Shown here: one piece after another, positions 1,616-20,107 of the stretch | Numbering within the stretch: the first letter of the stretch is position 1 | Layout of the letters: every line of letters begins with the position of its first letter | DNA from: an uncultured Candidatus Rokubacteria bacterium | GTDB taxonomy: Bacteria > Methylomirabilota > Methylomirabilia > Rokubacteriales > CSP1-6 | NCBI GenBank assembly: GCA_963771355.1 | Contig: CAVYTA010000005.1 | Location: 512,001 to 576,000, forward strand | Direction of reading: 5' to 3' | DNA: 64,000 bases | Position numbers and translations under genes: made by a program | The notes under the pieces: generated by a model | What the model was told of the DNA's origin: nothing | Seen by the model: only the letters and a program-made list of their open reading frames with translations | Database searches by the model: none

Positions 1616-2046
1616 GCGGGCTTCGCCAGCACGTTGACCTTCACCGTGGTCGCGACCGCGACCGTGCGGTAGAGGGGTCAGCGGGCCTGGTAGACCTCGA
1701 CCAGGGACTCCGCCTGCGCCTGGTCTACCCCGTGGAGCTCGAAGCGCATGCGCACCTCGGCGAAGCGATTGGGCTCGGCCACCGCGCGCACGCCTTCGAT
1801 GGTGACCTCGGTTCGCCGGAGGGGCACGCCCTGCTGCTGGGCGTAGAGCTCGATCAGCGTCACGCCGCAGGAGGACACGCCGGCCAGGAAGGCCTCGCCC
1901 GAGGACAGCGCCTCGTGCGGACCCGAGGGCGAGTCGATGACGAAGTGATTCGTGCGCGCCTGATTGAGCGCCCGGCCGGGCAGGCCGCCGCTGTACGAGC
2001 GCACCGTGTCGACCTTGACCTCCTCGCTCCGCTCGGAACTCATCAT
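1612..2046 (-). CDS. OsmC-family protein, probable selenoprotein (UGA at 1678-1680 read as Sec)
   Basis: First Cys in FLAGVSSCG. In-frame TGA sits at the second conserved Cys position (YQAR-U-PLY). The frame continues 21 codons to a TGA overlapping the next ATG (ATGA). A SECIS-like hairpin follows the UGA. Confidence 0.85.
1638..1675 (-). promoter_or_regulatory. Bacterial SECIS-like stem-loop
   Basis: mRNA reads CCUCUACCG-CAC-GGUCGC-GGUC-GCGACC-A-CGGUGAAGG; the apical loop GGUC starts 21 nt after the UGA. Confidence 0.75.
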
Positions 2047-2231
2047 GTATCCGCTCCCCTCGATCTTTGGATGGTCACCTCGCCTCCGGCTTCGGCTCCT
2101 ACTGCGGGCTGCGGCTCGCCAATCACGCTCCGCTCGGAACTCATCATGTATCCGCTCCCCTCGATCTTTGGATGGTCACCTCGCCTCCGGCTTCGGCCCC
2201 TACTGCGGGCTGCGGCTCGCCAATCACGCTC
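2025..2231. repeat. Tandem 2 x 101 bp repeat (plus 5 bp partial), member of a dispersed junction-repeat family
   Basis: Units 2025-2125 and 2126-2226 differ at one base; a related shorter copy lies at 19553-19611. Confidence 0.95.
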
Positions 2232-10633: not shown

Positions 10634-11091
10634 AGTACTGGGAAGACATCAAGCCGGGCGATACGAGCACGCTCGGCTCGTACACCGTCAGCGCCGAGGA
10701 GATCATCGCCTTCGCGAAGAAGTACGACCCGCAGCCCTTCCATCTGGACGAGGAGGCGGCGCGGCGCAGCATCTTCGGCGGTCTCATCGCCAGCGGCTGG
10801 CACTCGTGCGCGATCATGATGCGCCTGTCGGTGGAGGCCATGCGGCGTGAGGAGATGGCGGGGGTGGGCTCGCCCGGGATCGACTCCTGCCGCTGGCACA
10901 AGCCGGTGCGGGCGGGAGACACCGTCACCGTGCGCACCGAGATCACCGAGACCTGGCCCTCCCGGACCAAGCCGCTGGGCTTCATCCGCCGGAAGGCAGA
11001 GATGCTCAACCAGCATGGAGAAATCGTGCTCACCCTGATCGGCGTAGGGATGTTCCTGCGGCGCGAGGCCGCTCCGGGGAGTGCCGCGTGA
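10630..11091 (+). CDS. MaoC family dehydratase
   Basis: DPQPFHLD...FGGLIASGWH hydratase motif. Confidence 0.9.
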   Translation: MKYWEDIKPGDTSTLGSYTVSAEEIIAFAKKYDPQPFHLDEEAARRSIFGGLIASGWHSCAIMMRLSVEAMRREEMAGVGSPGIDSCRWHKPVRAGDTVTVRTEITETWPSRTKPLGFIRRKAEMLNQHGEIVLTLIGVGMFLRREAAPGSAA

Positions 11092-18765: not shown

Positions 18766-19536
18766 TCAGTCCGTGCCGACGAGGTGGGGGAGGATCTGGC
18801 CGATGGAGCCGCGCAGGACGGCGTCGGCGAGATCGTCCATGGCGGTGGGCTCGGCGTTGAGGATGACGATGCGCGCGCCCGATTCGCGGGCCACCGGCAC
18901 CACACCCGCGACGGGATAGACGGCGAGGGTGGTGCCCACGGCGAGCAGGAGATCGCAGGATTCGGCCGCCCGCTGCGCCCGCAGCAGATCCTCGCGGACC
19001 AGGCCCTGGCCGAAGGAGATGGTGGCCGACTTGAGGATGCCGCCGCAGGTGCGGCAGGCGGGATCCTCCTCGCCCGCCCGCACGCGCGCGAGCGCGCGCT
19101 GCATGGGGGCGCGCTCGCCGCAGGCCATGCAGGTCACTTCGCGCATGGTGCCGTGGATTTCCACTACCCGCGCGGGATCGGAGCCGGCCTTCTGGTGCAG
19201 GCCGTCCACGTTCTGGGTGATGAGGGTGTGCAGCTTGCCCCGGCGCTCGAGGACCACGAGGGCGCGGTGGCCCGCATTGGGCTCGGCGGTCCACGCGGGC
19301 GACTCGAGCCGGCTCTGCCACGCGCGCTTCCGCACCTCGGGATCGGCCATGTAGTGCTGGAGGGTGGCCATCTGCTCGGCCTTGGGATCGCGCGTCCACA
19401 GGCCCTGGGGACCGCGGAAGTCCGGGATGCCCGACTCCGTGGAGATGCCCGCGCCGGTGAGGACCACCACCCGCTGGGCGGCGTCGACGAGCTTGCGGGC
19501 CGCGTCGAGCTCGGGCCGCTCGGGACCTTTCATCAT
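18766..19536 (-). CDS. cobB: NAD-dependent deacylase (Sir2 family)
   Basis: TGAGISTESGIPDFRG, TQNVDGLH, EIHG and two CxxC zinc motifs. Confidence 0.92.
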   Translation of the reverse strand: MMKGPERPELDAARKLVDAAQRVVVLTGAGISTESGIPDFRGPQGLWTRDPKAEQMATLQHYMADPEVRKRAWQSRLESPAWTAEPNAGHRALVVLERRGKLHTLITQNVDGLHQKAGSDPARVVEIHGTMREVTCMACGERAPMQRALARVRAGEEDPACRTCGGILKSATISFGQGLVREDLLRAQRAAESCDLLLAVGTTLAVYPVAGVVPVARESGARIVILNAEPTAMDDLADAVLRGSIGQILPHLVGTD

Positions 19537-19611
19537 ATCCGCTAGCTCCCCTCGCTCCGCTCGGACCCCATCATGTATCCGCTCGCCTCGCCTTCGGCTG
19601 CGGCTCGCCAA
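19516..19611. repeat. Second locus of the junction-repeat family (one shortened copy plus one degenerate partial copy)
   Basis: CGCTCCGCTCGGA..CATCATGTATCCGCTC..CTCGCCT..GGCTGCGGCTCGCCAA matches the two ends of the 2025-2125 unit. Confidence 0.85.
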
Positions 19612-20107
19612 ACTCGCCCTCGAGCTCGTCGAGGCATTCGGCGAGCAGCGCAAAGGCGGCGCGCGTGAAGGCCCACATATTGGCCTCGCGGTCCGCTCGC
19701 CCCGTCTCGATGGTGCGGGAGCGCTCGAGGGGACCGGTCACCGCGATGCAGCTATGGCCGGCGGCGTCGCCGTAGCGGTTGCCGGTGGGGCCGGCGGCGC
19801 CGGTCTCGCCGAGCCCCCAGGTAGTGCCGAGCCCCTCACGGATGGTGCGCGCGTTGAGGAGCGCGGACGCCTCGGTGCTGGATCGGATGCCGCGCACTGC
19901 GTCGTCCGGAATCGCGAGCAGCCGGCGCCGCGCGGCCTGGGTGTAGATCACGCCGCCGCCGAGAAAATACTTGGAGGCGCCCGGAATGGACAGGAGCGCG
20001 GCCGAGATGAGACCGCCGGTGGAGGATTCGGACACGGCCACGGTGTCGCCCCGCGCGACCAGGCGCGCGGCGAGGGGGGCGCAGAGACCGGCCAGGAGCT
20101 CGGGCAC
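19571..20107 (-). CDS. CinA/PncC family protein (NMN deamidase-like)
   Basis: VAVSESSTGGLI, PGASKYF and ETGAAGP motifs; the C-terminal tail is encoded by the repeat. Confidence 0.88.
   Translation of the reverse strand: MPELLAGLCAPLAARLVARGDTVAVSESSTGGLISAALLSIPGASKYFLGGGVIYTQAARRRLLAIPDDAVRGIRSSTEASALLNARTIREGLGTTWGLGETGAAGPTGNRYGDAAGHSCIAVTGPLERSRTIETGRADREANMWAFTRAAFALLAECLDELEGEFGEPQPKARRADT

Follow-up and report, generated by a model that had tools for sequence, protein, structure and literature searches.

Why do the last residues of a CinA/PncC-family protein and, as it seems, the first residues of the sirtuin encoded next to it both come from copies of one DNA repeat? The question arises at a gene junction in the window, by which we mean the whole 64,000-nt stretch that was analysed from the genome (G000) of an uncultured soil bacterium of the Candidatus Rokubacteria. 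The original prediction was that a genome-wide repeat family donates peptide termini to unrelated proteins, by analogy with the Rickettsia palindromic elements (RPEs). Is the repeat there for the sake of these peptides, or are the peptides incidental to something else?

The CinA Pfam domain occupies residues 12-159 of 178, with the model complete to 155/155, and the sequence and the ORF reading agree in placing the last 13 residues and the TGA stop inside a 62-nt repeat unit (Table 1). They agree too that the ATG overlapping this stop, at 19574, opens the short frame MMGSERSEGS*, as had been proposed. The repeat was described at the outset as a shorter variant lying on the sense strand at a gene junction. 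This holds with one correction: the short form, of 62 nt against 101 nt in the units at 2022-2230 (a difference of 39 nt), is the standard unit, and the long one is a nested variant that is rarer (3/35 full units). The sirtuin start MMKGPER had been ascribed to a degenerate partial copy. The half-copy is indeed present and contains ATG 19536; that this ATG is the real start is likely, judging from a GGAG 9 nt upstream and from the 5-nt gap after the stop of the small ORF. Contigs of runs X5 and X6, from two other studies, are identical to 19429-19579 and 19582-19651, no single contig crossing the unit, and contigs from RNA runs gave no usable cover of the junction.

Table 1. Repeat units and adjoining genes in the window
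Feature	Position	Strand	Remarks
Two 101-nt long-variant units	2022..2230	-	Between HbpS-like gene (2230-2637) and OsmC-like gene (1678-2046)
Sirtuin (SIR2/CobB-type) gene	18766..19536	-	Residues 1-9 likely come from the repeat
Decayed 3' half of a second unit	19510..19545	-	nhmmer E 0.0018 (local search); contains likely sirtuin start MMKGPERPE
Small ORF MMGSERSEGS*	19542..19574	-	Putative; 4-nt overlap with CinA stop
Standard 62-nt repeat unit	19550..19611	-	E 7e-14; short 5' leader, left hairpin, variable spacer, right mini-hairpin
Right module, 13 nt	19551..19563	-	Predicted GCGNAGC-type mini-hairpin with tandem G-A closing; 3' end Shine-Dalgarno-like
Variable spacer	19564..19580	-	Holds ATGA stop-start overlap (19574-19571) at the cinA junction
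CinA/PncC-family gene	19571..20107	-	Residues 166-178 (GEPQPKARRADT) and stop encoded by repeat
Left module, 28 nt	19581..19608	-	One DNA strand predicted to form a hairpin (GNA triloop, tandem G-A pairs), from covariation at 6/23 and 2/27 and a variable loop centre

Comparison with relatives ties the termini to the repeat. The cinA gene is next to the sirtuin gene in nine genomes, of which six have the element and three (G001, G007, G010) do not; the orthologs in these three lack both the CinA tail and the sirtuin head, so that in none of them are the termini conserved without the DNA repeat. The genes in G001 and G007 meet at a plain stop-start overlap. In G004 and G006 one unit supplies both the CinA tail and the sirtuin head MMGSERSE at a single ATGA overlap, and the CinA tail of G004 has two residue changes that come from one compensatory base-pair swap. 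G003 and G005 have a complete second unit where G000 has its decayed half-copy; the unit count across genomes is 0, 1, 1.5 or 2. In G002 and G003 the CinA stop lies just upstream of the element; G000, which carries one and a half units, has lost this native stop, and its CinA reads into the repeat for that reason. Three changes on the gene tree are required to explain the filled state, so the site was gained or lost repeatedly.

The repeat family and its predicted hairpins

A profile built from 32 short units gave 64 unit matches at E<=1e-3 in G000 versus 1 in the reversed genome. These fall into 41 dispersed loci with periods of mostly 42-63 nt, which bears out the predicted genome-wide family. 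A 28-nt pattern, for which backwards controls gave zero matches, occurs 23-70 times in 8/8 genomes of the genus, 17-34 times in four others and 0-1 times in the remaining 19. With the same pattern, a sample of the phylum was positive in 59/93 genomes of the same family, 2/12 in the order's other families and 0/45 of other orders; copy number within one bacterial family ranges from 0 to 70. In a species-wide scan, 63/80 loci among the matches listed came from Rokubacteria or Methylomirabilota titles and 17/80, again among the matches listed, from six assemblies with other titles, taken here as titled only. Rfam had no family above the gathering threshold for 19300-19800 (best E 0.88), a plasmid search gave only 11 weak partial matches (best E 0.2), and viral contigs held 0 exact motif matches. 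The family is real and apparently undescribed. In literature searches naming, though not requiring, Rokubacteria, no paper among the matches listed had that word, which tests absence from print weakly.

Several other arrangements were seen on the way. The 2.75-Mb contig G000:C6 has no copy in its first 0.96 Mb; all its copies fall in the stretch from 0.97 to 2.42 Mb, which corresponds roughly to the region of negative GC skew. A second repeat family, whose stem is a canonical GC one, is found at G000:C5:650611, C6:1442219, C6:592311 and C7:46985 (its 5' motif was matched 23 times, versus 1 in the control), and at loci L123 and L130 of G004 a repeat of the 62-nt family appears nested inside it. 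A third small repeat has four copies (G000:C6:1910413, 554409, 552660 and 550677), some ending in the same right mini-hairpin. Loci L346-L362 of G012 carry a 44-nt variant without the right hairpin, in arrays of up to seven units that read, in another frame, as chains of small ORFs overlapping by -4.

What is conserved in the unit? Standard folding gave no signal (z about +1.5 on both strands), and the standard folding program does not model sheared G-A pairs. Over 312 contexts the strongest covariation is that between positions 6 and 23 (CG 201, GC 92, GA 13; mutual information 0.86 bit), and positions 2/27 also swap, in a pool partly selected by patterns permitting variants at 6/23 and 2/27. 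G000 alone is free of this pattern bias; there 6/23 is CG in 41, GC in 11, GA in 7 and other in 2 (n=61), the loop centre is A39/C14/G7/T1, and the flanking G and A are invariant in 61/61. In 22 units, 98.3% of cells pair, versus 18-39% when slid. Most pairs never vary and are therefore uninformative on covariation. This includes those of the right module, whose structure is predicted from a motif match (excerpts of PMC13037366). The unit contains the loops CCGAAGG and GCGGAGC. Excerpts of PMC13037366 and PMC10085684 present GNA loops and sheared G-A pairs as motifs that stabilise DNA, and do so more strongly than in RNA; matching mini-hairpins are described at RSF1010 ssiA and the N4 promoter (excerpts of PMC13037366). 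The fold would be strand-specific, because the complementary strand would have C-T mismatches. The covariation points to hairpins of one DNA strand, not to a conserved peptide.

Placement, translation and added peptides

With our own codon-score gene caller we classified the 183 sites that eight genomes contributed (every usable one in G000, a subset in each of the others), and reduced them to 105 independent clusters. Flanking genes were sense on both sides in 70, antisense on both in 11, mixed in 19 and uncalled on one side in 5. Stops of the upstream sense genes fall within -5..+1 of the element in 24/82 cases; as a rough comparison, 3.9% of co-directional intergenic bases are within 6 nt of a stop. 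Most copies are intergenic and a minority lie inside genes. The neighboring genes are ordinary metabolic and housekeeping ones (by Pfam content, for example, guaA-dnaE, mutL-miaA, nuoC-nuoD and pyrR-pyrB).

Units at such junctions may pass translation from one gene to the next. At 2022-2230 two small ORFs connect the HbpS-like to the OsmC-like gene by three ATGA overlaps; the same junction in G001 and G006 has a single overlap. A strict relay through -4/-1 overlaps occurs at 20/56 junctions (one intragenic site was dropped), versus 11.4 with randomised phases (p 6e-4), and a spacer ATG is in frame with the downstream gene in 17 of 51 versus 14.0 (p 0.2, no enrichment); both p-values overstate the case because kin and unit variants share ancestry. 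Without G000 the relay figure is 11/33 versus 6.1 expected. A control that used ordinary intergenic gaps (10/25 vs 159/1240) was judged unfair, and the phase randomisation was substituted for it. Array periods of 3n+1, which break read-through and relay alike, are scarce (7/47), and 3n+2 periods tend to hold an overlap motif (13/19 vs 5/21). We read the relay excess as a filter, copies that keep translation going being the ones that survive. The strict relay is missing from 36/56 junctions, cinA-sirtuin with its 5-nt gap included, and these may rely on the Shine-Dalgarno-like right end.

How often does the repeat reach proteins? The proteome search suggested by the original prediction, done by regular expression on 5170 called proteins, found signature peptides in 12: three C-termini of the form GE.QP..ARRADT, one near-terminal insert, five second-frame inserts and three N-termini. 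A BadF-type ATPase and the linker of HPF each carry an insert of ~23-25 residues, which the orthologs in 4/7 and 4/5 relatives, respectively, do not have. DnaE2 has a repeat-derived insert in G004 and none in G000. The insert in an acyl-CoA dehydrogenase (G000:C5:925049, L071) is in frame in G002 and G004; in G000 the gene is frameshifted just after the insert, possibly through an assembly error. A hydantoinase reads through an antisense copy; over all cases, the repeat is read in two sense frames and on the antisense strand. Two further cases stand apart. A G000 DnaE gene with a repeat-derived N-terminus (G000:C6:1001333-1006165, L073) also has a LAGLIDADG-like domain, probably an intein, and at locus L331 of G010 three tandem units run in frame inside a nucleotidyltransferase-like ORF, with ~63 added residues.

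Could the element be kept because it puts useful peptides at protein ends, an RPE-like source of protein modules? The three C-termini, three called N-termini and five internal inserts in G000 would fit this idea, as would the persistence of some inserts across species (that of the acyl-CoA dehydrogenase in G000, G002 and G004). We find it very improbable, however, because the majority of copies are intergenic, those that are read use both sense frames and the antisense strand, orthologs manage without the peptides, and variation follows DNA pairs rather than codons. The claim that the element donates termini to unrelated proteins is supported in part: the event occurs in the predicted proteins, as a minority outcome in which any frame and the opposite strand can serve. 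The termini and inserts, as predicted peptides, are most likely tolerated by-products of the element.

Gain and loss of copies and the search for a mobiliser

Many sites are old and common to relatives (21/24 with G002). Sites that are filled in a relative and empty in G000 number 3/24 for G002, 2/13 for G003 and 16/27 for G004, one of the 16 carrying a decayed copy in G000 and two sites being unplaceable. At locus L060 the element sits inside an ATGA overlap and has ATGA at both flanks; G000 has the single overlap. At dprE1-dprE2 the difference extends to near-identical strains. A 2263-nt contig of run X5, among contigs matched at 92% likeness, is without exactly 103 nt, shows no other difference over 598 nt and has the CATGA overlap restored, so that the filled allele has two CATGA and the empty allele one. 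Run X6 has the same joint, with a short side of only 30 letters, and run X4 has the filled allele, in which CATGA precedes the element. Clear direct repeats were found at only these two sites, the other empty sites being too diverged or without clear duplication, and the empty allele could reflect precise loss instead of the pre-insertion state. Units also multiply in tandem (0 to 3 left modules across alleles and genomes at the dprE junction), and different unit variants occupy the same site in different species.

The G000 copy at dprE1-dprE2 (G000:C7:326779-326890, L095:1779-1891) lies in ORFs fused by one missing base, which run X4 does not share; this may be an assembly error. Positions 11061-11083 of the window are an empty site, and where it is filled, in G004 (L124), one gene acquires the tail GEPQPQARRADT and the gene after it the in-frame head MMVPERSE.

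So strict a conservation of the hairpins, in copies that lie in housekeeping operons and have two loops like those of the RSF1010 ssiA and N4 promoter mini-hairpins (excerpts of PMC13037366), might instead reflect a cis-acting operon signal maintained by the host, which gene conversion has spread and homogenised: a site for protein binding or mRNA processing, or one for priming on exposed single-stranded DNA. A signal of this kind would hardly be gained and lost so freely between species and even strains, nor vary so widely in number within one family, and copies are also found within coding loops and on the opposite strand. We hold it to be unlikely.

Is an enzyme of the genome responsible for the spread? 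Y1 transposases (PF01797) occur in 0/8 genus genomes, and in 2/12 element-rich versus 4/19 other genomes. IS110 (7/12 vs 10/19) and IS91 (5/12 vs 9/19) were rejected as mobilisers, as neither tracks the element cleanly. Two or more GIY-YIG matches are present in 9/12 element-rich versus 0/19 other genomes. Two stand-alone GIY-YIG proteins were rejected in turn: they are not repeat-flanked as a rule, and in 52 further genomes they gave 10/24 vs 6/28 and 12/24 vs 8/28. Their post hoc union (21/24 vs 10/28) is a weak, kin-confounded lead. No transposase was seen among the scanned neighbor genes of copies. That the mobilising enzyme was not found among the Y1, IS110, IS91 and GIY-YIG candidates is the main gap in our account.

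The lack of any transposase association would be expected if there were no dedicated mobiliser and the stable hairpins themselves promoted the spread of copies, through template switching in replication or through microhomology repair. The ragged ends, the few clear target duplications and the different unit variants at one site point the same way. An exact 103-nt presence/absence difference bounded by CATGA does not, and recognition would more readily account for a structure that is strand-specific and shows compensatory change; we rate spread without a mobiliser as quite unlikely.

We think it likely that the dispersed 42-63 nt family, gained and lost at junctions, is a non-autonomous selfish element resembling the MIRUs (mycobacterial interspersed repetitive units, reportedly described by Supply et al. 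in 1997), with peptide termini as by-products. One strand would fold into hairpins with GNA loops and G-A pairs, which an enzyme acting in trans would recognise as single-stranded DNA. Integration of the unit would occur at stop codons, at stop-start overlaps or close to either, with (C)ATGA duplicated in at least some cases, and copies would survive because their open frames, their own stop-start overlap and their Shine-Dalgarno-like end keep downstream translation going. Arrays and precise losses would arise by slippage or recombination. At the cinA site the added peptides would be tolerated passengers.

Comparison with known repeats

REP/REPIN/BIME elements with RAYT (Y1) are short hairpin repeats, dispersed and in arrays, with likely single-strand recognition. 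The Rokubacteria family shares the short hairpin repeats, dispersed and arrayed, and the likely recognition as single strands; it differs in that no Y1 was found in eight genus genomes, inverted doublets are not the rule, and there is a strong sense bias at stop-start junctions. The RPE analogy of the original prediction fits the in-gene copies only, a minority of sites, where in-frame inserts in unrelated housekeeping proteins (BadF-type ATPase, HPF, acyl-CoA dehydrogenase, DnaE2) are missing from orthologs. RPEs are ~105-150 bp and palindromic, nearly half of them are intragenic, and they encode one conserved peptide (excerpts of PMC10969869 and PMC3184786), whereas the Rokubacteria unit is 42-63 nt long (62 nt at cinA), folds weakly by standard rules, prefers stop-start junctions and is read in several frames; MIRUs are closer.

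BRE, BOX and RUP are likewise small repeats, reported to extend the 5' and 3' ends of protein genes or to fuse internally, and excerpts of the same review class RUP and BOX as MITE or MITE-like (PMC3184786). We set the Rokubacteria repeat apart from them by description, with sequences uncompared; the terminal inverted repeats of a MITE are not evident, the unit ends in alignment A1 not being complementary. The GNA loop with any N and the sheared G-A pairs are also those of the GCGNAGC DNA mini-hairpins and CGAG blocks (excerpts of PMC13037366 and PMC10085684). These are physical motifs, known from origins of phages and plasmids or from a human promoter, and do not make up a repeat family; the Rokubacteria fold is a predicted one. 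Since extension of protein termini by small repeats is already known (excerpts of PMC3184786), the surprise is limited. Annotation is affected in that DnaE, HPF, CinA and others have repeat-derived termini or inserts and the apparent DprE1-DprE2 fusion lies on one copy.

We take the repeat behind a Mycobacterium intracellulare repeat primer to be a MIRU. The Rokubacteria unit shares an 11-nt mini-hairpin motif with that primer (PMC10117815). As excerpts of three papers present them (PMC12548453, PMC3184786, PMC3914561), MIRUs are 40-100 bp units at ~40-50 dispersed loci (41 here), intergenic in operons and directed as the flanking genes (here 70 vs 11 of 105 sites), and occur in tandem arrays whose copy number varies at one locus, as here; the mobiliser is unknown in both. 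These excerpts further describe small MIRU ORFs that overlap their neighbors at -4, a feature that the strict relay would reproduce at 20/56 sites, above random phase, while the other 36 lack it and the cinA junction realises only half of it, and a short direct repeat at filled versus empty sites, for which we find ATGA (L060) and CATGA (dprE1-dprE2), with none evident in other alignments. The differences lie in the host phylum, in the frequent read-through and in-frame intragenic copies of the Rokubacteria family, and in its covarying GNA/G-A hairpins, which those excerpts do not describe for MIRUs.

Excerpts of the reviews leave open by what means MIRU-type repeats move; here filled and empty alleles at strain level, a covarying one-strand hairpin and the wide copy range make the mobiliser searchable. 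A broader idea, tentative and rather doubtful as a whole, is that junction repeats with GNA loops and G-A pairs, MIRUs perhaps among them, belong to a single class of single-stranded DNA elements that spans phyla. An unrecognised enzyme would integrate them at (C)ATGA overlaps, their lengths would be tuned to translation coupling, and they would still be moving among strains, steadily giving rise to new protein ends, loops and gene fusions. Within narrower bounds, the Rokubacteria repeat appears to work like a MIRU, although we do not file it as one, the likeness being behavioural and the sequences compared only by the 11-nt motif.
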